The notes: generated by a model from the sequence alone, not told the origin. A stretch of 64,000 bases of DNA from Candidatus Poseidoniales archaeon (GCA_003602605.1 QQRW01000040.1:19283-83282); one strand, 5' to 3'. Positions 2,795-20,449 are shown, counted from the stretch's first letter. Translations and numbers: made by a program.

Positions 2795-5700
2795 TCAGTC
2801 TTCGCTCTTTTTGCGACCTACTGTTCTGCGCTTAGGAGCCTTACGAGGTGCAGCTCGACGACCAACTACTCGCTTCTTAGAGACCGGCTTTTCCTCAACC
2901 TCTTCATCATCATCGTCATCGTCGTATTCGCTCCAATCGATACCGTCATCATCGTCGTCCTCGTCATCAACGACCTCAGGAACGTCCTTCTTACGACGTG
3001 TTTTACGGGTGATAACATTCACCGCAAATGGGTCTTCTTCTTCTTGTTCTGCTTCAGGTTCAGTCTCAGGTTCAGCTGACTTTTCATCTGTTTTTACGCT
3101 TGTATCCGTGACTGCACCCATGTCCAAATCTTGCGAAGTTCCGATAAACTCAGACATCCAGTCTTCATCTTCTTCTTCGTCCGCGCCTGCCTTCTTCTTC
3201 TTAGGGCCACTCATACTGGTACTGATGACCATAAACATGATAATCAGTGAAAACACAAAGATTCCAGAGAGTATCCAGACCAAAATATACGGCGGGTCGG
3301 TCATGGACGGTTCAACGATAACAGGTTCTGGCTCAGGCTTGAGTGACTCGACATAGTTACAAGAGGTCGTTCCGTCAATCCTGTTACGACATTCATCGAC
3401 AACAAAAATGACACTTGTTGACCTCTCATTGCCTGCAGAGTCAACTGCCCGAACAAACACAGCGTGTTGTCCCGGTAGGAAATTTCCTGCTGAAAACTCT
3501 AAATCCAAAACCAAAGAACTGTTATCCCCGTCAAGGTTGGTGACTTCGGTGGCTTCAGTCCAAGGTGTATTGATTGACTGACCCGTTCCGTAATTGTAAG
3601 TAAACTTGTATTGGAACGAATCAATTCGCACATCATCCTCTGCGCCAGCAAGAACTTGAATCATGTTACCATACAGATACTTTGATTCACTGTCAGAGAA
3701 CGAAGACGGCGAATAAATTACGACTTGTGGGGCGACTGCATCAACGGCTCGGTCCGTCCATTGTTGTGTAGCTTGGTTGTTCGCAAGATCTTCCATTTGA
3801 ACTTCAAAAACCATATCGCCGGCAATGGTGGCGGAGGTGATAAAGAAGTCGAGTTGGTAGACTGGTCCTCGGTCTGGGTTACCTGCGTTTTCTTGAATAA
3901 GCGTCATCTCACGATCGCCTCCAGAAAGGTCACCGCCACCAAGAGTGGTGATGTTGATCATCGGGCTTACATCAAGAGGCTCATCGAATTCAATTTGCAC
4001 CTTGTAGTCGCCTGCAATAAGTGAAGGACTGGTGAAAGCCTCATTGTCTTCATTAATCAAAACCATAGAGGCTTGAGGTGCTTTGGTATCTTCTGTCACT
4101 TTGATGGCGTTAGAATTGAGCCCTGAGTAGGTCTCGGGATCTGTGTTGCCCCATTTGTCAGCAACCATAACGGCGTACCAAACATCTCGATCGACGTCAT
4201 TTGGAATATCGATTTGTCTGAAAAAAGTGTTCTCCTCGGATGCCCCGGCTTGTATGTTATCAATGACGAGTTCCCATCCGTCATCAGTTACGGAACTTAT
4301 CTCGCTCTCATCTTCTCCAAACGGTTCACCATAGTGGCGCCAGACCTGATATACTTCATCGGTTTCATCGCTGTTGAACCATTCAAGGGTAACCTTGTTT
4401 AGGTAACCAATAGACTGCACTTCTTTCATACTCACGCGAAGCGGAGGTGTTGTGTCCTCCTCGTTTCCTTCAGCAATTTGGAAGTAGTTTTGGTTCAGTC
4501 TCTTATCCATGTAGGTTCCCGAAAGGTGTCCGTAAAGAGCCTCAGTCGTCACGAAATAATACGGGCGAGACACGAGAAGGCCATCTGAAAGTTCGACGTC
4601 GAAATACCCAACTCCGTCACTTACGGAACCAAGCCATTGGAGCGAGCCGTTGAATGTCGCCCATTCTCCGCCGGTAACCTTCCATCCTGCTTTGTAAATG
4701 TGGTATTGCTCACCTTCAACGCCCAATTGGTCGGTCCATGAGACTCTAGTGGTCTTGTTACCGATGAATTCAGCATAGACATTGGTGGGTTCAGCGATCC
4801 ATGGACTAAATGCATCTTCAACGACTGCATCGGAGCAGGAGTTGAAACTCACATTGGTATCCATAACACCGTACATGTCGACGGTTGCTACGCAATAATA
4901 CGCATTTCCGAGTCGACCTGTAGGCACTTCGTAATCGAACGATTCTACCCCTTCTGAAATTGTCCCAAGCAGTTGTACATCTGAGCGAAGAACGCTCGAG
5001 AACGCCGTACCTGACATGTAAATGCGGTATGATTCTCCTACCTCTCCTGCAACGTCGGTCCAAACAACCGTAGTCGTTCCACCGCCGTCGGTTGGCTCGG
5101 GATTGAACTGAGCATACATCGAACTGACTTGCTCTGGAGGAAGGTTGTCTTCCATAATCGGAGAGGTCATGGCGTTGCTCGAAAGGAAGCGCACATCTTG
5201 GTAATCTTGACCTGGTGCAGTCCAATTCGGCAAATTATAGGTGACCGAGTAATACGCTTCTCTGTCCGTGTTTTGCGGTACATCGATAACAATCGAGGAG
5301 GTACCTGCGGGAAGAGTTGCAATTGGTGTTTCTGTTGCAAGCATATTCGCACCGTTGGAACGAGTCACGGGATACGATGTACGATACAGTAGAATCTGGT
5401 AGGCATCATCGCCTGTATCGGGAAGAATTGGGAAGATCTCGTTGTAATTAATCCATTGAATGGTCGATTGGCTCAAGTCCGGGTCGAACGATCCAAAGAT
5501 GTTGTATGGCGTGCGAATCGGAGTCGTCTGTTCAAGAATGGGCGTTTCAATAAGAGAGGCGTTTTCATCTAAATCAGTGAGTTCTGTTCCATCTCCAAGG
5601 GTTGTCGTAACTGCATAATAGAACGATTCATTGACACCGGGTGAAACAAGGTAAGAGACAGAGTGCTGAGCGACGGTGCCATTAATTCCACGGCATTTGA

Positions 5701-6052
5701 AAGCGTCGTTTTGAACCTCTGCAGAAGAACATGCTACAATTCCTGTTTCAAACGGAGTAAGGCTGCCGATTGAAGATTGGTCGATGACATCACTTGAGCG
5801 GTAAACATTGTACGTAGCAGTGAAAAGTCCCTGCAAAACGGAACCATCAATGTCAATATTGCGCCAAGTGACCGTAGTGGTTTCTGAGGCAGGGTCAAAC
5901 ACTGCACTGATGTCTTGAGCTTGTAGATTGCTCGGATTTCCGATATCTTCCGCTGAAACATTGCTCATTGGCAGCAAAGCAAGAAGCATGCACATCACAA
6001 GGAAAATCGCTTTTCTCTTGCCTTCTTTACCGAGCAGATTGACTGTCATCAT
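2795..6052 (-). CDS. Large type-I anchored surface protein with about five FN3-like modules and a 136-aa polyampholyte cytoplasmic tail
   Basis: Signal/anchor KAIFLVMCMLLALLPMSNVSA. Repeated W...Y.[IV]Y modules (TTVTWRN..YNVYRS, STIQWINY..ILLYRT, TTVVWTD..YRIYMSG, TRVSWTD..YHIYKAG, VTLEWFN..YQVWRH). TM helix YILVWILSGIFVFSLIIMFMVI, then alternating D/E and K/R blocks. Confidence 0.7.
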   Translation of the reverse strand: MMTVNLLGKEGKRKAIFLVMCMLLALLPMSNVSAEDIGNPSNLQAQDISAVFDPASETTTVTWRNIDIDGSVLQGLFTATYNVYRSSDVIDQSSIGSLTPFETGIVACSSAEVQNDAFKCRGINGTVAQHSVSYLVSPGVNESFYYAVTTTLGDGTELTDLDENASLIETPILEQTTPIRTPYNIFGSFDPDLSQSTIQWINYNEIFPILPDTGDDAYQILLYRTSYPVTRSNGANMLATETPIATLPAGTSSIVIDVPQNTDREAYYSVTYNLPNWTAPGQDYQDVRFLSSNAMTSPIMEDNLPPEQVSSMYAQFNPEPTDGGGTTTVVWTDVAGEVGESYRIYMSGTAFSSVLRSDVQLLGTISEGVESFDYEVPTGRLGNAYYCVATVDMYGVMDTNVSFNSCSDAVVEDAFSPWIAEPTNVYAEFIGNKTTRVSWTDQLGVEGEQYHIYKAGWKVTGGEWATFNGSLQWLGSVSDGVGYFDVELSDGLLVSRPYYFVTTEALYGHLSGTYMDKRLNQNYFQIAEGNEEDTTPPLRVSMKEVQSIGYLNKVTLEWFNSDETDEVYQVWRHYGEPFGEDESEISSVTDDGWELVIDNIQAGASEENTFFRQIDIPNDVDRDVWYAVMVADKWGNTDPETYSGLNSNAIKVTEDTKAPQASMVLINEDNEAFTSPSLIAGDYKVQIEFDEPLDVSPMINITTLGGGDLSGGDREMTLIQENAGNPDRGPVYQLDFFITSATIAGDMVFEVQMEDLANNQATQQWTDRAVDAVAPQVVIYSPSSFSDSESKYLYGNMIQVLAGAEDDVRIDSFQYKFTYNYGTGQSINTPWTEATEVTNLDGDNSSLVLDLEFSAGNFLPGQHAVFVRAVDSAGNERSTSVIFVVDECRNRIDGTTSCNYVESLKPEPEPVIVEPSMTDPPYILVWILSGIFVFSLIIMFMVISTSMSGPKKKKAGADEEEDEDWMSEFIGTSQDLDMGAVTDTSVKTDEKSAEPETEPEAEQEEEDPFAVNVITRKTRRKKDVPEVVDDEDDDDDGIDWSEYDDDDDDEEVEEKPVSKKRVVGRRAAPRKAPKRRTVGRKKSED

Positions 6053-6145
6053 TCCACTTGTCGCATGCGACGGTTAAGAGCATGTCGCATATTTAACCGG
6101 TAAAAATGACATTCAACACACCCCTACGGGGTGCGAAGTTCTCAG

Positions 6146-6853
6146 TCATTCTTGTTCTGTTGATTGATTTGGTTGTGGCAATGGGTCTTCGGAATCGATT
6201 CGGGTGATTTCCGAATGTGCTTGTCGGAAACGCACAAGGAATGTCCACAGTCCACCGAAAGCTGAAATCAAAACAACAATACTCAGCGGCGTGATTGGAA
6301 TGTGGTCCAGTACCCCTGGCAGCATTCCGAAATCGCCGATACCTGCGTGAATAAAAACAGCGGTTAGGAAAATTCCTAAAATCGTCACAACGGTGCGGTC
6401 TGCTCTGGAGAAACCACGATAATTTCGTGAGCCTGCAACGGCTTGTGCTTGTGTCCCCATGTACGAACCCATAAGAGTCAGCCAAGCTGCTACAAGCCCT
6501 AGTGTGAAATCGCCGACGAAAACGGAACCTGCGATACATAACAGCCAGATGGCGTCAAGAAGTCTGTCAAATGTGTGATCAAGATAGTCTCCCCATCGGC
6601 TAACGTTGCCGAATCTCCGTGCCAAAGGCCCGTCTAAACCGTCCATAGCCATGGCCAGTATCATCAACAAACCGCCACCAAGTAACATGTTTGCGCCATA
6701 CGATGTTTCATCTGCAGTTAACACAGCCAATCCGCCAAGAATGCCAACGGGTAAAGCGACCCAAGTTACCGTGGATGGTTTCACATTCTCAAGCGAATCT
6801 AGAAGTGGGTTTAGGATGCCTTCCCAAGTGTCTCTTAATTTCTCCAATGCCAT
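6146..6853 (-). CDS. CDP-alcohol phosphatidyltransferase (archaetidylserine or archaetidylinositol-phosphate synthase class; head group not determinable)
   Basis: Exact D-G-x2-A-R-x8-G-x3-D-x3-D signature (DGPLARRFGNVSRWGDYLDHTFD), polytopic. The ATG at 6853 (MALEKL) is preferred. The longer ORF to 6934 would overlap the upstream gene's stop. Confidence 0.8.
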   Translation of the reverse strand: MALEKLRDTWEGILNPLLDSLENVKPSTVTWVALPVGILGGLAVLTADETSYGANMLLGGGLLMILAMAMDGLDGPLARRFGNVSRWGDYLDHTFDRLLDAIWLLCIAGSVFVGDFTLGLVAAWLTLMGSYMGTQAQAVAGSRNYRGFSRADRTVVTILGIFLTAVFIHAGIGDFGMLPGVLDHIPITPLSIVVLISAFGGLWTFLVRFRQAHSEITRIDSEDPLPQPNQSTEQE

Positions 6854-6924
6854 GATGCTCGTACCTGTGGCCGAGGCGGGGGGGTGTTTGTTGTTGCGGT
6901 TCCTTACGCAATAAAATGTGAGTC

Positions 6925-7482
6925 TTACAACCAATTCATTGCTTTCGAGGCAGCTTCAGCAAGGGGGACCGATGGAAGACCTTGGTCAATCCACTGTACA
7001 ATTCTCTCACATAATTCATCGGCAGACAGACCCGTTGTATCGAGTTCCAGCAGAGGTACTTCAATCTCAAATTCGAGAAGTTCAGACCATGTTCCGGAAA
7101 GCATCTCCCATTCCACATTCGCAGTTATTTTTGAAGGTGAATACGAACGCCCCTCAAGTCGTTCACGAAGGACCTCAGGTTGGCATCGCAAAACAACGAT
7201 TGCATCGACATCAAGAAGATGAGAAAGGTGCCCATCGACAAAGGTCAACGCTTTCGATTCAAAATCCCAAACCTCGGAGAGTTTGTGAATGTCCAACGGA
7301 GCTGAACCATCATTTTCGTCGACAGGCCCTAGGCAATCGTTTTGTGCGGCCAATTCTTGAAGTGAAAGTACATTGTAGAGCGAACTTAACGACGCACATA
7401 CCGTCGTTTTTCCCGCACCTGGGGTTCCGGTTACTGCGATGCACAAGTTGTCTTCCACAGTAACGCCCGTGTTCACCAACAC
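6925..7482 (-). CDS. AK6/Fap7-type nucleoside-triphosphatase / adenylate kinase
   Basis: P-loop IAVTGTPGAGKTT, then VDGHLSHLL and VVLRCQPEVLRERLEGRSY, typical of archaeal/eukaryotic AK6. GTG start. Confidence 0.7.
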   Translation of the reverse strand: MLVNTGVTVEDNLCIAVTGTPGAGKTTVCASLSSLYNVLSLQELAAQNDCLGPVDENDGSAPLDIHKLSEVWDFESKALTFVDGHLSHLLDVDAIVVLRCQPEVLRERLEGRSYSPSKITANVEWEMLSGTWSELLEFEIEVPLLELDTTGLSADELCERIVQWIDQGLPSVPLAEAASKAMNWL

Positions 7483-7578
7483 ATAAACAAAAAGGCCGAA
7501 AGGTTAGATTTTAGGGGATATTGGTGTGGTTCGAGCGAAGCGAGCAGGGAAAGGCATGATAGGTCATCACCTACAGCA

Positions 7579-8340
7579 ATGAATGTTGCCATGTTTGGAA
7601 TGAACGACCCTGCTCAAACGCTGCTCCAGTTGGAGCGGTATGTGGCTGATGGCCGAATGGAAATGTCAGAAGTGATGGCAATCCAGTTCACGGATATGTT
7701 TCTCTCACAGAAAAACAGGGGCGCAGATGCACAAATTATGCTCGTCAAAGGTTTGCGGATACTTTGCGATGTATTCCTCGCAAGAAACAAAGCGAAGCGC
7801 GGCATATCGACCGTGAAAATTCTTCACCGAGAGCGTAAGAAATTGATTCGGATGCTAGCTAAAAACGCACCTCAACTTTTGGCAAAAATGACATCCGAGG
7901 CTGAAGATTATCGAAGGGCTGGGAAACTGTATGCACTGGCTGGAAAGAAAGGAGCAGCGATGAAAGCTTTTACCCAATGTGAAAAGAAATCACCTGGACA
8001 TGTGGCTGCTGCGCTGGAAGCATGTCAAATGGTTCCTGGCCAAAAGAAACTTGTTCAGCGACTCACCAGCGTTGTTACTGAGTCAGGCCCTGTCGTCATG
8101 TACGAAGGCGTGTTTTACTTACAGCCAATTGATTCTCCGATGGTGCTAACCGATGAAATAATCGCCGCCCTCCATTCAGCAATTGAGAAACAAATCGGCC
8201 CAACAGATGCTTGCAAAAAACAAATTGATCGCATAAATGAAGAGCGCCAGGCTATTGAACGCGGCGAAGCAGCTGCAAACGCTCGGCTGCAAGCCGCAAT
8301 GGATTTACTCAAACCTCAACACGATTACTACGAGTACTGA
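7579..8340 (+). CDS. Hypothetical helical protein
   Basis: Long uninterrupted ORF in a coding-dense region. No motif recognised. Confidence 0.45.
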   Translation: MNVAMFGMNDPAQTLLQLERYVADGRMEMSEVMAIQFTDMFLSQKNRGADAQIMLVKGLRILCDVFLARNKAKRGISTVKILHRERKKLIRMLAKNAPQLLAKMTSEAEDYRRAGKLYALAGKKGAAMKAFTQCEKKSPGHVAAALEACQMVPGQKKLVQRLTSVVTESGPVVMYEGVFYLQPIDSPMVLTDEIIAALHSAIEKQIGPTDACKKQIDRINEERQAIERGEAAANARLQAAMDLLKPQHDYYEY

Positions 8341-8343
8341 GAA

Positions 8344-8421
8344 TGGTAACGAGAGATGGATTTGAACCATCGATCTCCGGGTTATGAGCCCGACGGGATA
8401 TCCAGACTACCCCACCTCGTT
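8344..8421 (-). tRNA. tRNA-Met (anticodon CAT), initiator-like, 3' CCA encoded
   Basis: Hand-folded cloverleaf. Acceptor AACGAGG/TCTCGTT, U8, D loop with GG. Anticodon stem TCGGG/CCCGG with loop CTCATAA. 5-nt variable AGATC, T arm GATGG-TTCAAAT-CCATC, discriminator A, CCA. A1:U72 and three G:C pairs next to the anticodon loop are initiator hallmarks. Confidence 0.85.
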
Positions 8422-8535
8422 ATACACAACGCTGAAACCCTCCCATTCTTCAATGCACCGATGCAGTACGATTGAGGATAGCACAGAGGAAAATCATTCC
8501 AAGTGAGCATTTCACACAGAATTAGCACTGCATTG

Positions 8536-9405
8536 ATGAATATGAAGCGCATGAGACTACTTATGCGAGCAGGGCGAACAGTACCGGTTATCTTGTGCTT
8601 ATTGCTCCTGTTGACATCGATTTCAGGCTGTCTGAGTTCTGATGGAGAACCGAAAGAAGCCAGCGCAATCGAACTTATCGTCTATTACGACGCAACTTCC
8701 GGTGTCATTGAAGAAAACGTGCAAAACAACCAACAGGTTACTGAGAGCGGCGTCGAACTCACCTTCGACTTCTCGTACACCAAGTCCTCTGCAGGCGCCA
8801 TGGTTACCTATTATTTCCTTCCAGGAGACGGTTCAAGTGCTGTTGAAAATAACGCTGCTGAAGATGGCGAAATCACCTACACATACCTCACGCACGGCCT
8901 CTTCGATGCAGCTATGGGCGGTGTCGACGACCAAGGTAACGATTACTTTGAGAACATCACCATCCGAATCGACAAACAAATCACTTGGGGCGACAGCAAC
9001 ACTGCAGACCCTGACGTTATGAATATCGAAACAACTCCGGACTGCAATTGCCCGGCACCGGAAAAAATCGTCGTCGAATCAACAGTTGTGAATATTGAAA
9101 ATCAACCCGCAACCCCAATCAATCAGGGTCAAACCGTCACAGTAACATGGAGAATGTTGAATTCAACCGATGCAACAACCGTCGAATCTGCACCGGAGCA
9201 AGTCGGAGACGGACAAGATGCTTCATGGATGCACAACCAGTACTTCGTCGAACCGGGGACATGGAAACTTGAGGTCGATGTGAGTGCAGAAGGAAACGGG
9301 GAGGAACGGGTCAATGTCGACCATACAGTGCAAATCCTCTACGATGCTCAAGAAAGCGTCCCTAATCCAATGGGCGATTCTGAGGTTGACGAAGAAACAG
9401 AATAG
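8536..9405 (+). CDS. Exported lipoprotein-like protein with a PKD-like domain
   Basis: Signal peptide ending in lipobox-like LTSISGC. PKD-like TFDFSYT..YYFLPGDGSS..ITYTYLTHGLFDAAMGGVDDQGN. The ORF track starts at GTG 8503; the ATG at 8536 is preferred. Confidence 0.6.
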   Translation: MNMKRMRLLMRAGRTVPVILCLLLLLTSISGCLSSDGEPKEASAIELIVYYDATSGVIEENVQNNQQVTESGVELTFDFSYTKSSAGAMVTYYFLPGDGSSAVENNAAEDGEITYTYLTHGLFDAAMGGVDDQGNDYFENITIRIDKQITWGDSNTADPDVMNIETTPDCNCPAPEKIVVESTVVNIENQPATPINQGQTVTVTWRMLNSTDATTVESAPEQVGDGQDASWMHNQYFVEPGTWKLEVDVSAEGNGEERVNVDHTVQILYDAQESVPNPMGDSEVDEETE

Positions 9406-13687: not shown

Positions 13688-14935
13688 ATGTGGGACAGAA
13701 TGATTGACATGGCAGGAACACCGGTAACAATGATGGATGGTAAACTCAGCATTCCAAATGACCCAATTATTCACTACATCGAAGGAGATGGCATTGGTAT
13801 CGACATTACCCCTGTCATGATGAAAGTTGTTGATGCCGCTGTTTCAAAGTCTTACAACGGTGAAAAGAGCATCGTATGGTCCGAAGTTCTCGCTGGTGAA
13901 AAAGCATTCAACGCTACTGGAGAATGGTTGCCACAAGCAACACTCGATGCTATGCGTACTGGCCTTGTTTCCATCAAAGGCCCGTTAACAACACCGGTTG
14001 GTGGAGGGATCCGCTCCCTCAACGTCGCACTTCGACAAAAACTCGATCTTTACGCATGCGTTCGCCCAGTACGATGGTACGACGGCACTCCGTCCCCAGT
14101 CAAATCGCCTGGCGATGTTGACATGATTATTTTCAGAGAAAACAGCGAAGATGTGTACGCCGGTATCGAATGGGAAGCCGGAAGCGACGGTGTCAAGAAA
14201 CTCATTGACTTTTTACAAAACGAAATGGGTGTTGACAAAATTCGATTCCCAAACACTTCCGGAATTGGAATTAAGCCAATTTCGCAAGAAGGAACTGCAC
14301 GTATTGTTCGTGCAGCATTCCAATATGCGATTGATAACGATAAAGAGAGCGTTACCCTTGTCCACAAGGGCAACATCATGAAGTTCACAGAAGGTGGGTT
14401 CCGTGATTGGGGATATTCTCTAGCCAAGGAAGAATTCGGTGCTGTAGAACTCGACGGGGGGCCATGGTGTACTTTTGAGAATCCAAACAACGGAAAAACA
14501 ATCCTCGTCAAAGATGTTATTGCGGATGCTATGCTCCAACAAATCATTACCCGTCCTGCTGAATATTCAGTGTTGACTACCATGAACCTCAACGGCGATT
14601 ACATTTCAGACGCCCTGGCTGCACAAGTTGGTGGAATTGGAATCGCTCCAGGCGCCAATATCAACTATGATACTGGCATTTCAATCTTTGAAGCAACACA
14701 CGGCACTGCTCCAAAGTACACCGGACAAGACAAAGTGAACCCAGGTTCACTTATTCTCTCCGCAGAAATGATGCTACGACATATGGGTTGGAGCGAGGCT
14801 GCTGACCTCATAGTCAAAGGAATGGAAGGAGCAATTTCTGCTAAAACTGTAACCTACGATTTTGAGCGTCTAATGGACGATGCAACACTACTCTCCTGCA
14901 GTGCCTTTGGCGATGCAATGATTTCGCACATGTGA
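13688..14935 (+). CDS. icd: NADP-dependent isocitrate dehydrogenase (prokaryotic homodimeric type)
   Basis: [40 protein letters not shown] (regulatory Ser context as in E. coli Icd), [22 protein letters not shown]. Confidence 0.92.
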
Positions 14936-14938
14936 GGC

Positions 14939-17900
14939 TCACTTGAGCCAAGCGTTCAGAGAACGACTGTTCTTCGCAATTCCGAAGCCGAATTGCTCTT
15001 CGAAAGCTCGTGCAACGAGAGTAAAGTCACCGTCTCGTGTCGCCACCAAAACAGTTCCAAGATCTTGCAGTGATTGAGTTGCCAATTGTGAAGCAATCTG
15101 CATGATTACCCGGTCAGGTGCTTCTGGATACACGTCTCGGCCATCGAGGACGGTACGGAGAGGTTCCCCCCGTGTACGCTTCATTGCAGTAATCTCTTCG
15201 TATATTTCTGTAGAATCACGCAAGAACTGTTCGATTGCTTCAACATTTTCGGTAGACTCGGCTTCTTTCTCTAAATCAAGATTGAGAGGTCGCCAAGTGT
15301 TGTAGTCCTTGAGAACATCCTCAACTAAAGAATCAATGGTTTTGGCACTGAAAATGTTGTCGAGTAATTCGGGAGATACGAGTGAATCATCGAATCGAGC
15401 CTTGAGATGCTGAATGCCTGAGGCAATTCCACGCAACTCTTGCTTGACGACGGAGGGCAACCACAAATGCAGTTTCTTATCCTTTGATTTACTCAACAGA
15501 ATTTTGTGGAAACTCCCCTGACCACGCACATCAAGACTTGCTTCACTTACCAGGTGTAGTTTCTCAGAAATGCGGTCAATCAATGCGTCGACGAGAATGT
15601 TCGTGTCAACGAGAACCAACGGAGCCAGTGAAAGATTGCGAAGGTAACGACGTGATGCATTCGGTATCAGTGCCTTGTTTATTGAAAACAATGATTTCTC
15701 AGCCTGTTGGAGCCTGCGGATTTCCGAATCTGTGAACAGTGAGCTGTTTTGAGCACGCTCAAGGAACATCAATCCATCAACCGGCCGTATCTTCGCCGCT
15801 TCACTTGCCAAGGTGTAGACTTCATCAGCAGATGGAGAGCCACCATGCATCAATTGATTGAACCGGACATCGAATGTGTTCTTTTGGCGGCGACGGTTCT
15901 TGTGAAGTGAATTGGTTGCTGCGGTAACACGGCCGCAAAACGGATCGGTTGGAAGCGGTCGAGGATGTTCAAGCGGGTATGTTTTCAGCATATCCAAATC
16001 GTCTTCAGCGTGGTACACGCGTAGCACTTGCACCATTTCACCTTCTTCGTTTTCTTCAGTAACCATGCGAGAACGCTTGACGAAATCCTTGAGGAGTTTC
16101 GTTGCCGAATTAGTATCTTTAGATTTAGCAGTATACGATACTCGTAAATACAGCTGGAATCGTTGGGTAATGGCGCTCTTCAATGCTGGTTGAGCATCGA
16201 GTAATTCAACGGCCTCACGCCATTGTTCCGCAAACGCAAGGTGAATCAGAGCCTTACGATAGAGTGTAAGGGAGTGTTCGTAATCAAAGTCCTCATGATC
16301 GCCGGCTTTTCTGTAATCTCTTGCAGCGTTCAATTCTTCATTGTTCGAAGCGTAAACTGCTGCACGAGCAAGGGTGTGCCACGGGGAAAGAGCATCATTA
16401 TGCTGATACCATCGGACAAGGGATGGGAGACCAATGTCGTGTTCGAATACCAAATGACGCACGCTGTGAATCATTCCAGTAGGTATGGATGGTTCGCTTA
16501 ATAGCGCGTTAAGCGTCTCGATGTTTTCAGAATTGGAATTACCGTGTTGAAGCATCAATCCAACATAATTGAGACGCAGTGTAGAGATTACTGCATTGAA
16601 CAAAATTCGTTCCATGACTGTCAAATCTGCTGCAAGAACACTCTGTTCGAGGTTCGAAAGATGGGTCGAGGAAGCTATTCCGCTGCCGCCATCTCGCAAC
16701 GCTTGACGAATAGGTCCGAAAGCACGTAGGCCTTGGCGGTCAAGTACCGTCGTGAGCCGCTCATCTTCGATGTTTTCACCTTCAAACAGCATCAACAATG
16801 CTTCAGAAGTTGAGGAAAAGGATTCGGGTGCATCAATACTGTGAATTTGAGAAAGTGCGGTTCGACGTGCCGCACGAACTTGCATCCAAAGTTCACTGTC
16901 GCTACCAGCATCAAGAAGGTGCGATACAAGGAGCGTTTCGTATGGGTGAGACATTGGAATAAGGTCATCCGAGGTAATAATTTGAGCAAGGAGTGATAAT
17001 TCCATGCTTTGAGTATAGATGTCGATGAGGAGAGGAAGCACTTTTTCATGCGCTTCAACTGATTCTGCTTTGAGATTCTTAGCGGATACAGAACGTATCT
17101 CGAGTGACAATGAGTCCATTTGTATGAGAGCAACCAAGGCACCGTCATCCAACACAGGTATCTGCTCTAACAACCACTGGTCGAGTTTCTCACTGGATAA
17201 GTCGGCCAAAAGAGGTGTAATTCGGGATAATTCGGTGTGCTGATCGAGTTTCAAACTGGTGAGCAACTGAACGGTTTCTTCAGTCTTTCCTTCCTTGTGA
17301 AGCGCGTTCAATCTCCACCACATTACCTTCTCAATTTGTGAAGCATTGGTGGTTTTCTCACGAAGAAGTTCTAATCCTTCAGTGAGTTGTTTCGAGGATA
17401 ATTTAGCTGCTTCATCGGGAGCGTTTTCCCAAGCCATAAGTTTTCGAATTGCAGCAAGGGAATGTCCTCCTTTGGCTGCTTTCGATTTCTTCCAGTCTGT
17501 TACATTCCCCTGGCTGAGGGCATAAAAGTCAGAAAGTTGTGAAGCCAACTCCTCGTCAACGGAACTAAGCGTTTTCAGTGGCACGGCAGGATCATTGCCA
17601 GATATCAGAGAAAGTAGCACGCTTAAGGCAGAGGCTTGGCCTTCCATACTCAACAATACTTTGGCTGGTTGTACTGAGCGCCCGGCTGAGAGTTGTGAAA
17701 CGACCGTTCGTAGGGCAACTTGTGATTCAGCATCGGTGATTGAAGGAGATATTGCCTCAATGGCAAGAATCAACTCTTCTGAATTGGCAGGATTGATAAA
17801 AGCCGAATCGAGTTTTACTTTCTTGCCAGCTTTTGATTTGGAAACTTTGGCCTTCGGGAAAGCAGCAAACTGAGCGAGAACTGCAGTTCGTTGAGCCAAA

Positions 17901-18340
17901 TCATGCCAGACAGGATGAACGCCCTTTTCGAGGCATGTTTCACGAAGTGATTTTTCAGTGACTTCCCATTCTTCATCCCATTCCTCCTTGTTGAGAAGTT
18001 TGTGAACCATCAATACGGCCAAGCGGTACGCGGGGGAAGAATCTGACGGCAGAAGCATTTCTTGTGCAGTTGGAAGCAAGTCCATCGGCCCCGTAGCGCC
18101 TCTTCCGCCCCGTCGACTTCGCCCACGTCCACCCTGCGTTCGACGGCGAGGTGTTGATTCAGAGTCTTCATCAGCTGCGGGCAGCTCTGTTTCAGCCAGT
18201 GCAAGAAGGAGAAGCGGTCGCCATGGTTTCTCAAGCAGTTGCCAGTCCGGTAACTTGACCACAATCGCTTGGCGGCGATTTTTCGTGATGTTCGTCTTGA
18301 ACGCTTCTTTGAGGCAGTTTGCTATGTACGTCTCTTGCAA
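14939..18340 (-). CDS. Large helical-repeat protein with N-terminal RGG box and C-terminal PIN nuclease domain
   Basis: RRRTQGGRGRSRRGGRG at about aa 65-82. Long helical body. The last 229 aa or so carry the PIN acidic quartet: LVLVDTNILVD, VVKQELRG, EAPDRVIMQ, VATRDGDFTLVA. Confidence 0.65.
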   Translation of the reverse strand: MQETYIANCLKEAFKTNITKNRRQAIVVKLPDWQLLEKPWRPLLLLALAETELPAADEDSESTPRRRTQGGRGRSRRGGRGATGPMDLLPTAQEMLLPSDSSPAYRLAVLMVHKLLNKEEWDEEWEVTEKSLRETCLEKGVHPVWHDLAQRTAVLAQFAAFPKAKVSKSKAGKKVKLDSAFINPANSEELILAIEAISPSITDAESQVALRTVVSQLSAGRSVQPAKVLLSMEGQASALSVLLSLISGNDPAVPLKTLSSVDEELASQLSDFYALSQGNVTDWKKSKAAKGGHSLAAIRKLMAWENAPDEAAKLSSKQLTEGLELLREKTTNASQIEKVMWWRLNALHKEGKTEETVQLLTSLKLDQHTELSRITPLLADLSSEKLDQWLLEQIPVLDDGALVALIQMDSLSLEIRSVSAKNLKAESVEAHEKVLPLLIDIYTQSMELSLLAQIITSDDLIPMSHPYETLLVSHLLDAGSDSELWMQVRAARRTALSQIHSIDAPESFSSTSEALLMLFEGENIEDERLTTVLDRQGLRAFGPIRQALRDGGSGIASSTHLSNLEQSVLAADLTVMERILFNAVISTLRLNYVGLMLQHGNSNSENIETLNALLSEPSIPTGMIHSVRHLVFEHDIGLPSLVRWYQHNDALSPWHTLARAAVYASNNEELNAARDYRKAGDHEDFDYEHSLTLYRKALIHLAFAEQWREAVELLDAQPALKSAITQRFQLYLRVSYTAKSKDTNSATKLLKDFVKRSRMVTEENEEGEMVQVLRVYHAEDDLDMLKTYPLEHPRPLPTDPFCGRVTAATNSLHKNRRRQKNTFDVRFNQLMHGGSPSADEVYTLASEAAKIRPVDGLMFLERAQNSSLFTDSEIRRLQQAEKSLFSINKALIPNASRRYLRNLSLAPLVLVDTNILVDALIDRISEKLHLVSEASLDVRGQGSFHKILLSKSKDKKLHLWLPSVVKQELRGIASGIQHLKARFDDSLVSPELLDNIFSAKTIDSLVEDVLKDYNTWRPLNLDLEKEAESTENVEAIEQFLRDSTEIYEEITAMKRTRGEPLRTVLDGRDVYPEAPDRVIMQIASQLATQSLQDLGTVLVATRDGDFTLVARAFEEQFGFGIAKNSRSLNAWLK

Positions 18341-18446
18341 AATAACCCCCCCTGCCCTCTTGGCTCCACCTACCCGCCTTCAACCCACCGGCATGGCCTT
18401 CATGAAATCAACCGACAAATAAAGAGGCAAATATCTGCGAACAACA

Positions 18447-18950
18447 ATGAACAAAGAACGTTTGGCATGGAATGGGAGCGAAATGGATCCGGTTCGAGTA
18501 GTAATTTTGCTCCTTCATCCACTTCTCGCATCTGGGCTACTGGTATGGATTTGGTGGCAGTATTCTTGGCGAAAAAAAAGCCACGAACTCAAAGGTGAAC
18601 TACGAAAAACTGCTCTTGCAAACCATGAACGAAATGGAAACCGGCTTGTTTGGGCAACATTTGTTGTCATTTGCATCGCATTCATCAGCCGGGGCATTAC
18701 CGCTTGGCGTGATGGAGAAGATGTGTTAACATCACTCGTACCAGGAAGTCTTCATGGGTTCATGGGCCCGGTCGGATTCGTGCTTCTGTTCATACTGGCT
18801 CGTATGGGGCGACAGGCTCGAGATGCCCGGAAAGAAGGAAAGAAGTTCAAGCACATAGCAATGCGTCATGGTAGAGCGGCTGATCTCGTGGTCGTTCTCG
18901 TTTTCTTGCATGCTTTTTTGGGATTTTTGTATATTTTTGCGATACTGTAA
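18447..18950 (+). CDS. Four-helix integral membrane protein (DUF4079-like, weak call)
   Basis: Four hydrophobic helices with conserved-looking His (LLHPLL, SLHGFMGP, VFLHAFLGF). Confidence 0.4.
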   Translation: MNKERLAWNGSEMDPVRVVILLLHPLLASGLLVWIWWQYSWRKKSHELKGELRKTALANHERNGNRLVWATFVVICIAFISRGITAWRDGEDVLTSLVPGSLHGFMGPVGFVLLFILARMGRQARDARKEGKKFKHIAMRHGRAADLVVVLVFLHAFLGFLYIFAIL

Positions 18951-18951
18951 G

Positions 18952-19950
18952 TCATTCAATAGCAAGAACAACACTTCGATTTTTCCACGCCTCAATCCAC
19001 AATTCGAGATTTGATTCGACTCCTGGTGGCTGGATCCGACATCCACAAGCATTGGCATGACCGCCCCCAGTCGGATCAAACATCGTCGCTAAGCGAGACA
19101 AATCAAATCTATTCTGCCCGTTTTCGAGAAATGAATTTGCGTAGAAACTAGCGGAGAGTGCTGGACGTTCAGGTGTTTCAATCGAGCCGTCCGCATAGCC
19201 ATGAATAATGCAGCACGCATCTGCCCTGTCTCCCGCCCACGCAGTAACCAGATATCCATTAGAGCGAACTCCTTTCTCATCCATACGGCAGATAGCTAGA
19301 CGATCAATAATTTCGGTATGTTGCTCGACGACTGCTTGTGCAGCTATGCGTTCATCACGTGCTCGTTTGATGTGCGGTATGATGTCTTTATCGGCCAGAA
19401 CTTCTGATAACAATGCGCCCTGGGAAAAGAGGTTGAGCACATGATGCATGTGTTCTGTTTCACGTAAAGAAAGTGAACGCGCAAGTTGCAGTACCGGTCC
19501 GTCTTGAATAAAATCTTCTCTTCGTATTTGACCCGAGTCAAGTGCATCAACGATGGGCATTATTTCTTCAAGGTGTGTCAAGTCGATATAGGGGCTCAAT
19601 ACATCAAATGCTAACCTTGCAGCTGAAGGCGTCGATTCCCAGTGACAGGTTCCGCCTTGTGAAATGAAGAGTTTCTCCTCCTCTTCATTGGGGCGGTTGG
19701 TTTGATGGTGGTCGAGATACCAACCACAATCCGGGTGAAATGGCAAGTCAACCATCGCAGTAGAACGGTCGATCAATTCATCCAAAGCACCGGAACGAAC
19801 GAGCGCCGCATGTGCGAAATGGACCTCTGCATCTGGATTCGCAGCCTTGAGTACTGCTGCTGCACATAAGCCGTCAAGGTCGGAGTCTGCGATTATTCGC
19901 TCGAAATCAGGAAGACCTGCTTTTTCTAACGGCGATGGAGGTTGAGGCAT
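18952..19950 (-). CDS. DHH-family phosphoesterase with DHHA1-type GGGH motif
   Basis: DSDLDGLCAA (DxD), YLDHHQT (DHH), GGGHANACG (DHHA1). The ATG at 19950 is preferred over the TTG at 20004. Confidence 0.7.
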   Translation of the reverse strand: MPQPPSPLEKAGLPDFERIIADSDLDGLCAAAVLKAANPDAEVHFAHAALVRSGALDELIDRSTAMVDLPFHPDCGWYLDHHQTNRPNEEEEKLFISQGGTCHWESTPSAARLAFDVLSPYIDLTHLEEIMPIVDALDSGQIRREDFIQDGPVLQLARSLSLRETEHMHHVLNLFSQGALLSEVLADKDIIPHIKRARDERIAAQAVVEQHTEIIDRLAICRMDEKGVRSNGYLVTAWAGDRADACCIIHGYADGSIETPERPALSASFYANSFLENGQNRFDLSRLATMFDPTGGGHANACGCRIQPPGVESNLELWIEAWKNRSVVLAIE

Positions 19951-20038
19951 AACGACATGCGTGTGCACGCTGCTCAAGAAGGTTATCGGAAACCATTTCG
20001 CCAAAATTGACTTGACCTATCGTCTATCTGCTCTGTCC

Positions 20039-20449
20039 ATGGAGACCTCGTGTGGCGTTGTTTTAGTCAACTACGGAACTGTACTTCTGCTCCAGTATCC
20101 TCAAGGGCACTGGGATTTCCCAAAAGGTCACGTCGAAGAGACTGATGAAGATCATTTTTCAACCGCGCGCCGTGAACTAAGTGAAGAAACCGGCATATCC
20201 GAAATAGAATTCATACCTGATTTTGTCGAAAGAAGCGAATACTCATATCGACATAAAGGGAAGAAGCGCACCAAGCAAGTGTACTGGTATCTTGCTGAGA
20301 CCGAGCGCATCAGCGTATCACTCTCTCACGAGCACCGCGGCCACATGTGGTTAGACTGGGAACAAGCAATGGATCAATTGTCTCATCAAGAAACCAAGCG
20401 AGTTCTGAAAAAGGCGCATGAGCACATGAGTTTAATCGGGAAAGAATAA
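20039..20449 (+). CDS. NUDIX hydrolase, Ap4A-hydrolase-like
   Basis: WDFPKGHVEETDEDHFSTARRELSEETGI closely follows the Nudix box as found in NUDT2-type enzymes, with a one-residue insertion. The ATG at 20039 is preferred. Confidence 0.75.
   Translation: METSCGVVLVNYGTVLLLQYPQGHWDFPKGHVEETDEDHFSTARRELSEETGISEIEFIPDFVERSEYSYRHKGKKRTKQVYWYLAETERISVSLSHEHRGHMWLDWEQAMDQLSHQETKRVLKKAHEHMSLIGKE

Follow-up and report, generated by a model that had tools for sequence, protein, structure and literature searches.

A 64,000-nt stretch of DNA from a Candidatus Poseidoniales archaeon (QQRW01000040.1:19283-83282, assembly GCA_003602605.1; hereafter the window, with positions counted from its first nucleotide) contains, on the minus strand, a 3,402-nt gene (14939–18340) for a protein of 1133 residues in which an all-alpha solenoid similar to tetratricopeptide repeat (TPR) arrays is followed by a PIN-like domain (hereafter the solenoid–PIN gene and protein; all of its features given below are on the minus strand). 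The coding sequence is complete, with a TTG start at 18340–18338 and a stop codon, as judged from the list of open reading frames (ORFs), direct reading of the sequence, and full-length homologues at 27–96% identity. The computed probability that 1133 codons remain free of a stop by chance is about 2e-24. The ORF lies exactly where a preliminary description of this DNA had placed it and is a genuine gene that occurs across Marine Group II (MGII) archaea (Poseidoniales).

The last approximately 230 residues of the protein (residues 905–1133; 14942–15628) are very probably a PIN-like nuclease of the VapC group, an assignment supported by an AlphaFold2 (AF2) model, matches to Pfam families of the PIN clan, a Foldseek search against BFVD, and names given to homologues in UniRef and IMG. 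The acidic motifs that the preliminary description had read in this region (DTN, QEL, PDR and RDGDF) are all found at their reported places and are conserved in homologues. The putative first catalytic aspartate belongs to the triplet D912-T913-N914 at the end of strand 1 (15599–15607), which is invariant in 25 of the 25 divergent family members, down to 27% identity, and is present in 75 of 76 species-level loci. E968 of the QEL motif (15437–15439) is located in the helix after strand 2 (S2), which is where the VapC group of the PIN-like superfamily has its catalytic glutamate (PMC5499597), so that the arrangement is the one described for that group. The third acidic residue, D1076 (15113–15115), starts the helix after strand 3 within a YPE..D motif that is found in 75 of the 76 loci. 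Finally, the segment T1101-R-D1103-G-D1105-F1106 after strand 4 (15023–15040) provides the fourth acidic position and an extra aspartate; F1106 is invariant, position 1101 is T or S in every one of the 25 divergent sequences, and this motif, too, is present in 75 of the 76 loci. The domain therefore possesses the four acidic residues that characterize the PIN superfamily (CL0280), with D912, D1076, D1103 and D1105 invariant and E968 retained in 24 of the 25 divergent members. This conservation of the putative active site is the strongest argument for a PIN nuclease. Canonical PIN domains act as endoribonucleases (PMC5499597).

The AF2 model of residues 880–1133 (predicted local distance difference test score, pLDDT, of 81; predicted TM-score, pTM, of 0.80) displays the predicted topology b1-a-a-b2-a-(insert)-b3-a-b4-a-b5-a, which matches the canonical order of strands and helices in PIN domains. 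The elements are b1 (906–911), two helices, b2 (958–960), the E968 helix, a block of helices (990–1057), a short hairpin with b3, a helix that begins at D1076, b4 (1094–1100) followed by D1103 and D1105, a helix, b5, and a final helix. The helical block corresponds to an acidic insert between the E968 helix and strand 3 (residues 983–1058; 15167–15394; isoelectric point, pI, of 4.2). The predicted order of elements is consistent with the three-layer alpha/beta/alpha PIN core, and a Foldseek search of BFVD started with the C-terminal model returns two annotated PIN proteins at ranks 1 and 2, with the probability of 0.99 (E-values of 3.3e-3 and 2.6e-2) over about 240 aligned columns, followed by DUF1308, XRN and FEN folds at lower ranks. 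Structure prediction is consistent with the PIN fold that had been proposed for this region, and we consider it very probable that the C-terminal domain adopts a PIN-like fold. Given this fold, the enzyme is quite likely to be active.

The profile searches point in the same direction below the curated thresholds. When the last 240–250 residues or so of 20 close and 25 divergent family members (the latter down to 27% identity) are scanned in isolation, the only Pfam families that match recurrently belong to the PIN clan, all with sub-threshold scores. PIN_12 (PF16289) matches 14 of the 20 close members over the whole model (positions 1–172 of 172), with the best E-value of 1.2e-4; on the window protein it scores 17.6–17.9 bits and so does not reach its gathering threshold of 32. 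PF01850 is detected in 5 members of the close set and 6 of the divergent set; PIN_3, PIN_4 and NYN each match a few members, and PIN_5 recurs as well. When residues 983–1043 are excised, PF01850 matches 11 of the 25 divergent members nearly end to end (model positions 1–118 of 120), with the best E-value of 5e-4. By comparison, the negative control, in which the isolated domains were searched against the 38,880 PHROGs models and NCBIfam, yields no recurrent family. In the proposed test of the last 230–250 residues with PIN hidden Markov models (HMMs), the recurrent signal is confined to the PIN clan, and no model reaches its curated threshold. One divergent cluster carries the IMG name ‘LabA/DUF88 family’, which denotes the NYN branch of PIN-like domains, and the UniRef name of P0386, from the MGII fosmid HF70_19B12, is ‘PIN domain-containing protein’; the clade so named in UniRef does not pass the Pfam thresholds either.

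Several other matches were discarded. In the Foldseek search of the Protein Data Bank (PDB), the HAD-like and PEP-carboxylase structures at the top of the output have TM-scores of 0.15–0.28 and root mean square deviations (rmsd) above 14 A, and the HAD fold was rejected because strand 1 is followed by DTN rather than by DxDxT. Matches to the DC-SIGNR repeat, uS19 and FabH in PDB profile searches started with four family alignments (A1, A2, A3 and A4) were considered spurious. An hhalign comparison of A3 and A4 with the single sequence of a VapC (3TND) aligned the DTN motif alone, because the effective number of sequences (Neff) of this template is 1. In the 64-kb window, no second PIN-like ORF was found.

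Among the species genomes of GTDB, 236 stretches encode a relative of this protein; the results reported here rest on the best 80 of the 236, and the order-wide scope is that of these 80 listed loci, the divergent representatives and the source names, among which Thalassarchaeaceae (MGIIb) do not appear. The phyletic mapping that had been suggested earlier recovers mostly full-length homologues: the best 80 matches all come from metagenome-assembled genomes (MAGs) or single-amplified genomes (SAGs) of Poseidoniales, with 39–96% identity, and nearly all span residues 1–1133. The gene is uninterrupted and retains every PIN motif in 75 of 76 species-level loci, so that it is not split by frameshifts in relatives, a possibility that the preliminary description had raised against its own reading. 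The single interrupted locus (L037; CAJJCP010000020.1, match 5312–8714) contains an in-frame stop after codon 501; the match spans 3403 nt, a length that three does not divide evenly, and the interruption therefore probably reflects either a one-base indel or an error of assembly. In the 80 loci listed, the gene occupies one syntenic core-genome position in a single copy. Two full-length copies on different contigs (L046 and L048), with 46–47% identity to the window protein, were found in one MAG, assembly DALZ01 (UBA128). These stem either from a bin of mixed populations or from a rare duplication; other genomes appear to have a single copy. At identity levels of 27–54%, 33 of the 1133 columns are invariant, among them D912, T913, N914, P1072, E1073, D1076, A1100, D1103, D1105 and F1106.

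Other databases give a similar picture. A word-indexed search retrieves 184 relatives, all labelled hypothetical and with no precomputed Pfam domain, and the named sources among these are Candidatus Poseidoniaceae or Poseidoniales. Among 1.84 billion representatives searched exhaustively with a profile, 238 match, about 30 of these being full-length (1090–1170 residues); the remaining ones resemble fragments from short contigs, and no second architecture occurs among the 150 matches listed of the 238. The family is absent from the viral contigs of IMG/VR, and a limited literature search found no paper that links MGII or Poseidoniales to a PIN protein of this kind. Altogether, the gene encodes an uncharacterized core-genome protein that is vertically inherited and present in a single copy.

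The bulk of the protein is an all-alpha TPR-like solenoid of about 45 helices (residues 91–900; 15641–18070) in the full-length AF2 model (mean pLDDT 80.7; pTM 0.47, which leaves the inter-domain geometry uncertain). A Foldseek search with the full model against the PDB identifies a series of TPR and other solenoid scaffolds, namely IFT-A, Ctr9, Ski3, Integrator, APC/C, Naa15 and karyopherins, with E-values from 2e-4 to 5e-2, probabilities up to 0.99 and TM-scores of 0.1–0.2. The TPR models of Pfam do not match the window protein and match a few divergent members only, with E-values of 0.08–0.4. The helical, TPR-like body of the preliminary description is accordingly retained as a fold class, predicted from the model, with no TPR family reaching significance. 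The most conserved part of the solenoid, with dense invariant columns in alignment A1 and pLDDT above 90, is the stretch 641–735 (16136–16420), a candidate ligand-binding surface with the conserved residues W644, SPWH (652–655), ELN (669–671), R674, Y676, DH (681–682), FD (685–686) and RFQLY (727–731). A long beta-hairpin is modelled within the solenoid at residues 755–777 (16010–16078; DSSP strands 755–763 and 769–777 in the AF2 model), and a basic motif, SRRYLRNL (residues 896–903; 15632–15655), immediately precedes strand 1 of the PIN-like domain. In the divergent alignment, R133, R804, R897 (within this motif) and R1062 are invariant, and the conserved basic patches are the Arg/Gly tract described below, a lysine-rich loop (161–176), NRRRQ (815–819) and SRRYLRNL. 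Neither a conserved Walker A motif nor a conserved cysteine cluster is present, and CxxC pairs are missing from all 25 divergent members, which excludes builds of the STAND, Nob1 and PRORP types.

Upstream of the solenoid, a conserved N-terminal segment of four helices (residues 1–52; 18185–18340; pLDDT about 80; alignment A1 and the divergent alignment) is followed by a disordered linker (residues 53–90; 18071–18184; pLDDT 31–39 for residues 53–84; segment pI 11.5) that consists of an acidic patch (ADEDSES) and an Arg/Gly tract, RRRTQGGRGRSRRGGRG (17 residues, 65–81; 18098–18148). The preliminary description had the protein begin with this tract; in fact, about 50 conserved helical residues come first. 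Proteins with RGG/RG boxes are divided into di- and tri-RGG and di- and tri-RG classes. The tract contains one RGG (residues 77–79) and three RG dipeptides (within 72–81), which makes it a tri-RG motif, and does not contain two or more closely spaced RGG repeats. Thus, the tract itself was correctly noticed, whereas its designation as a classic RGG box is overstated for a disordered loop with one RGG in an acidic protein. Family-wide conservation is limited to the core RRGG(R/K)G (RRGGRG in the window protein, residues 76–81; 18098–18115): R76 and R77 are invariant in alignment A1 and, down to 27% identity, are retained in 23 and 24 of the 25 members, respectively.

Many annotated gene models begin at M86, past the Arg/Gly tract, and yield a product of 1048 residues. 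A G-rich Shine–Dalgarno (SD)-like box, AGAGGGCAGGGGGGG (18346–18360), is located 5 nt upstream of the TTG start, nearly all the 76 loci have an equivalent box 5–8 nt ahead of the corresponding first codon, and residues 1–85 are kept as protein throughout the family in both alignment A1 and the divergent alignment. These observations indicate that the long form is correct and that the 1048-residue models are mis-called. The codon aligned to residue 1 in the 76 loci is CTG in 31 cases, TTG in 23, ATG in 16, CTA in 3, ATA in 2 and TTA in 1; the initiation codon of the family is therefore mostly non-ATG and always follows a G-rich SD-like box by 5–8 nt (loci L005–L084). In one clade, ATG, TTG and CTG alternate at the same start position. 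In the clade at 62% identity, an in-frame stop is found 5 codons upstream, with no ATG, GTG or TTG in between and an ATT at position -1 only. This pattern suggests conserved weak initiation, possibly at CUG or AUU. A non-ATG start behind a strong SD box further suggests low, controlled expression, as expected of a potentially harmful nuclease.

The genomic neighborhood keeps its synteny in relatives with identities between 96% and about 27% and consists of a DUF2203-like gene, Cob adenosyltransferase, a NUDIX gene (opposite strand), a DHH-like gene (same strand), usually a small ORF for a membrane protein (opposite strand), the solenoid–PIN gene, convergent icd, and OsmC; two of the clades examined have FtsZ and RadA farther downstream. 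The identity of icd is clear (Pfam Iso_dh, E-value of 6e-91). Its stop codon (TGA, 14933–14935, plus strand) and that of the solenoid–PIN gene (14939–14941) are separated by 3 nt, which leaves no room for separate terminators, so that the convergent transcripts must overlap; in most close relatives, the gap between the two genes in tblastn matches is 9–20 nt. The most divergent clade (L085; 11296–14264) has a methyltransferase gene and a rhodopsin gene (Pfam Bac_rhodopsin) between the solenoid–PIN gene and icd. On the other side, between the DHH-like and solenoid–PIN genes, a divergent ORF (18447–18950, plus strand) encodes a predicted membrane protein of 167 residues without a Pfam match, which is kept in most loci (43–94% identity) and is missing where the DHH-like gene abuts the solenoid–PIN gene. 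A contig of run X3 skips 147 nt (18393–18541) that cover the start of this ORF and the shared intergenic region.

In 66 of the 76 loci, the solenoid–PIN gene is preceded on its own strand by the DHH-like gene (about 330–350 codons), at a distance of 66–150 nt, about 615 nt, or 2.5–5.5 kb; the directly adjacent arrangement (66–152 nt) occurs in L011, L032, L033, L046, L048 and L085. In the window, this ORF (18952–20004, minus strand; 350 residues) contains the DHH/DHHA1 motifs DSDLDG, DHH and GGGH, shows weak Pfam matches to DHH and DHHA1 in the correct order, and has the pGpG-specific phosphodiesterase PggH as its best PDB match (7d62, E-value of 4e-4). By these motifs and matches, its product is probably a nanoRNase of the NrnA/PggH-like kind that escapes the present Pfam thresholds, and as such provides a weak hint at an RNA-decay theme. 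Mechanical ORF calling makes the 5' end of the NUDIX ORF (19961–20449, plus strand) share 44 nt with that of the DHH-like ORF, whose start is set at a TTG (20004, minus strand); more likely, the DHH-like gene starts at an ATG 18 codons downstream (MPQPPSP...), leaving a short shared divergent promoter region.

Among known PIN families, the closest HMM is that of PIN_12 (DUF4935). Both families have four or five acidic residues, a long helical insert after S2 and helices after S3; the insert of the solenoid–PIN protein comprises helices 990–1057, which separate strand 3 from the E968 helix. Both families also have monocistronic genes without a known function (PMC5499597). However, the DUF4935 proteins occur nearly always in bacteria (310, against 2 archaea) and are about 350 residues long, with an N-terminal PIN domain that precedes an alpha/beta region, whereas the Poseidoniales PIN-like domain is archaeal, is C-terminal to a 900-residue solenoid and scores below the PIN_12 threshold. 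In the published census of PIN-like domains, TPR, tetratricopeptide, solenoid and PPR are not mentioned; the census does list small PIN clusters restricted to Euryarchaeota, PIN_18 and PIN_27, with unknown functions (PMC5499597). The combination of a giant solenoid with a PIN domain that has a DUF4935-like insert appears to be a new architecture built around a known kind of nuclease.

The layout of the protein had prompted the preliminary description to compare it with the eukaryotic nucleases SMG6 and SMG5 (EST1 family) and Swt1. In these enzymes, as in the solenoid–PIN protein, a helical TPR-like region at the N-terminus precedes a C-terminal PIN domain that has a D/E/D/D site (D1251, E1282, D1353 and D1392 in SMG6); the eukaryotic enzymes are scaffold-tethered endoribonucleases rather than toxins. 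A specific relationship with SMG6/EST1 was not recovered: there is no match to Pfam EST1 or EST1_DNA_bind at E-values up to 1, and the Foldseek comparison of the helical body with SMG6 that had been proposed leads to other TPR and solenoid scaffolds, with no SMG5/6/7 chain among the top 50 PDB fold matches. PIN_4 (PF13638), the model for PIN domains of the SMG6 type, matches 2–3 of the 20–25 members (E-values of 0.0016–0.11), more weakly than PIN_12 or PF01850, and the distribution differs as well, with proteins of about 1130 residues in Thermoplasmatota in one case and eukaryotes only in the other. Because neither of the two defining features of SMG6/EST1 that were tested was recovered, the likeness is one of layout only, an analogy that would be explained most simply by convergence.

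Other multidomain proteins resemble the solenoid–PIN protein in part. PRORP combines PPR repeats with an NYN metallonuclease, that is, helical-repeat substrate recognition N-terminal to a PIN-like nuclease. The solenoid–PIN protein likewise has a repeat module before a PIN-like nuclease, and a few of its family members show weak NYN/LabA signals, but it lacks a Zn-binding module, conserved cysteine clusters and a PPR match, and its catalytic signature is that of the VapC group rather than NYN. Rrp44/Dis3 is an example of a PIN endonuclease within a large multidomain RNA-decay protein of the exosome, and the PIN-bearing Rrp44 (5k36_K) is the PDB match of the C-terminal model with the best TM-score (TMq 0.34, 223 columns, E-value of 2.7, probability of 0.28); this match is not significant, however, and the Poseidoniales protein contains neither an RNB nor a CSD domain. 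The best fold matches of the whole model, Ski3, Ctr9, IFT-A, the TPR subunits of APC/C and Naa15, hint at an assembly or docking platform; unlike the solenoid–PIN protein, these are known scaffolds without a nuclease domain, and with TM-scores of 0.1–0.2 and rmsd above 20 A the likeness holds at the level of the fold class only. Nob1 differs in its zinc ribbon (CxxC...CxxC), which is missing in the 25 members, and no Nob1-type Pfam or NCBIfam model matches.

Beyond the architecture, the conservation over the sampled order and the invariance of the putative active site, all of which are established by the comparisons above, we propose a composite interpretation, namely that the protein, with a TPR-like solenoid of about 850 residues, is a solenoid-targeted housekeeping metallo-endoribonuclease of Poseidoniales with a PIN domain of the VapC group; we estimate the probability of this interpretation at roughly 0.55. 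By analogy with the biochemistry of other PIN domains, D912, E968, D1076 and D1103/D1105 would bind Mg2+ or Mn2+ and cleave single-stranded RNA. The anatomy of the solenoid suggests that it docks the enzyme, through the 641–735 surface, on a specific RNA, ribonucleoprotein (RNP) or protein partner, while the basic patches (RRGGRG, NRRRQ at 815–819, SRRYLRNL, and R133, R804, R897 and R1062) may contact nucleic acid and flank the path that leads to the active site. Access may be gated by the acidic helical insert, located over the active-site side, and the weak start codon behind the strong SD box would keep the protein scarce. The role would accordingly be one in housekeeping RNA processing, decay or surveillance, rather than in growth arrest or defence.

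Several observations weigh against this interpretation. With the full-length protein, searches of Pfam (at E-values up to 1), of NCBIfam and, with phmmer, of PDB sequences yield zero matches; sequence models from Pfam, NCBIfam and the PDB all stay short of significance or of their curated cut-offs on either the protein or the domain, and Foldseek with the C-terminal model finds no PDB match at E-values below 0.1. That the acidic residues form one site is a prediction from their sequence positions and the model topology, and the choice of RNA over DNA as the probable substrate follows from the PIN subgroup only. The family is acidic overall (pI 5.0–5.7), and TPR scaffolds usually bind proteins, so that direct RNA binding by the body is no more than a possibility. 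The metabolic genes of the neighborhood are equally syntenic, so that the neighbors say little about function. As for expression, three runs of unknown type contain the sequence, and the sole true metatranscriptome touches icd only.

A more specific version of the proposal, which we regard as tentative and rather unlikely, is that Poseidoniales independently evolved a scaffold-tethered PIN endoribonuclease that would work like SMG6 or Swt1, docking on ribosomes or other RNPs and cleaving defective or specific transcripts, possibly in a decay module with the NUDIX and NrnA/PggH-like DHH genes. Also unlikely is a DNA-directed, structure-specific nuclease of the FEN/EXO type that serves replication, repair or recombination and uses the solenoid as a platform for DNA-repair partners. 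The PIN-like superfamily does include FEN-type DNA nucleases (PMC5499597), XRN- and FEN-type models appear low in the BFVD list, and RadA and FtsZ are encoded a few kilobases away in the syntenic block. Nevertheless, the putative catalytic glutamate resides in the helix after S2, a sign of the VapC group, whereas FEN-like enzymes have an aspartate on S2; an H2TH/H3TH element is lacking; the FEN and XRN fold matches have probabilities of at most 0.08, compared with 0.99 for the PIN proteins; and the Pfam signal comes from models of the VapC group.

The protein could also be viewed as an antiviral or abortive-infection effector in which a TPR-like sensor triggers the degradation of RNA by the PIN nuclease on infection; defence systems often contain fusions of large repeat sensors to nucleases. 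Weak translation initiation would suit such a dangerous effector, and the best fold matches are two PIN proteins of phages or giant viruses. We consider this explanation improbable, to a slightly greater degree than the DNA nuclease: PADLOC finds no defence model that matches, nor does the protein share with the STAND/Avs defence NTPases a conserved Walker A motif or a Pfam match, and a single-copy gene that is intact in 75 of 76 loci at one syntenic core position and is absent from viral contigs is unlike the patchy, mobile genes of defence systems. Quite unlikely is a mainly non-catalytic scaffold whose PIN-like domain, like those of the pseudonucleases SMG5 and Utp23, would bind RNA or protein without cleaving. 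Although the body is four times the size of the PIN-like domain and holds the most confidently modelled conserved surface (641–735), the acidic positions, together with the T/S and N helper residues, are conserved down to 27% identity (E968 in 24 of 25), whereas pseudonuclease PIN domains typically lose them. The weakest explanation, an oversized VapC-type toxin, accounts for the motifs shared with VapC (e.g., Shigella VapC, 3TND: hhDTN, a glutamate in the helix after S2, an aspartate at the N-terminus of a helix, and T.D.DF) but is hardly credible for a protein with a 900-residue extension and an insert of about 75 residues, compared with about 130 residues in VapC and its adjacent VapB, encoded at a core-genome position in all the 80 loci listed. 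No antitoxin-sized ORF is adjacent to the gene in the window, where its neighbors are icd, convergent and 3 nt away, and the divergent membrane-protein ORF, an arrangement shared by homologous loci, so that the conclusion of the preliminary description that this single intact gene of a syntenic core block does not encode a toxin stands.

Since PIN domains occur in fusions with many modules and the function is inferred, the finding is not radically surprising. The archaea of Marine Group II, which rank with the most abundant ones of the plankton, are uncultured, which makes conserved unknown genes the main handle on their cell biology. The solenoid–PIN family is present in every species locus listed, is about 1,100 residues long, evolves under strong purifying selection on the nuclease active site, and is not covered by any Pfam model. 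Defining the domain and assigning it an activity would annotate hundreds of MAGs. Its architecture would place a PIN domain on a scaffold in a prokaryotic protein that is not a toxin, by a logic that recalls SMG6, Swt1, Dis3 and PRORP. If the SMG6/Swt1-like reading is true, one of the most abundant archaeal lineages of the ocean would possess a dedicated RNA-surveillance nuclease.

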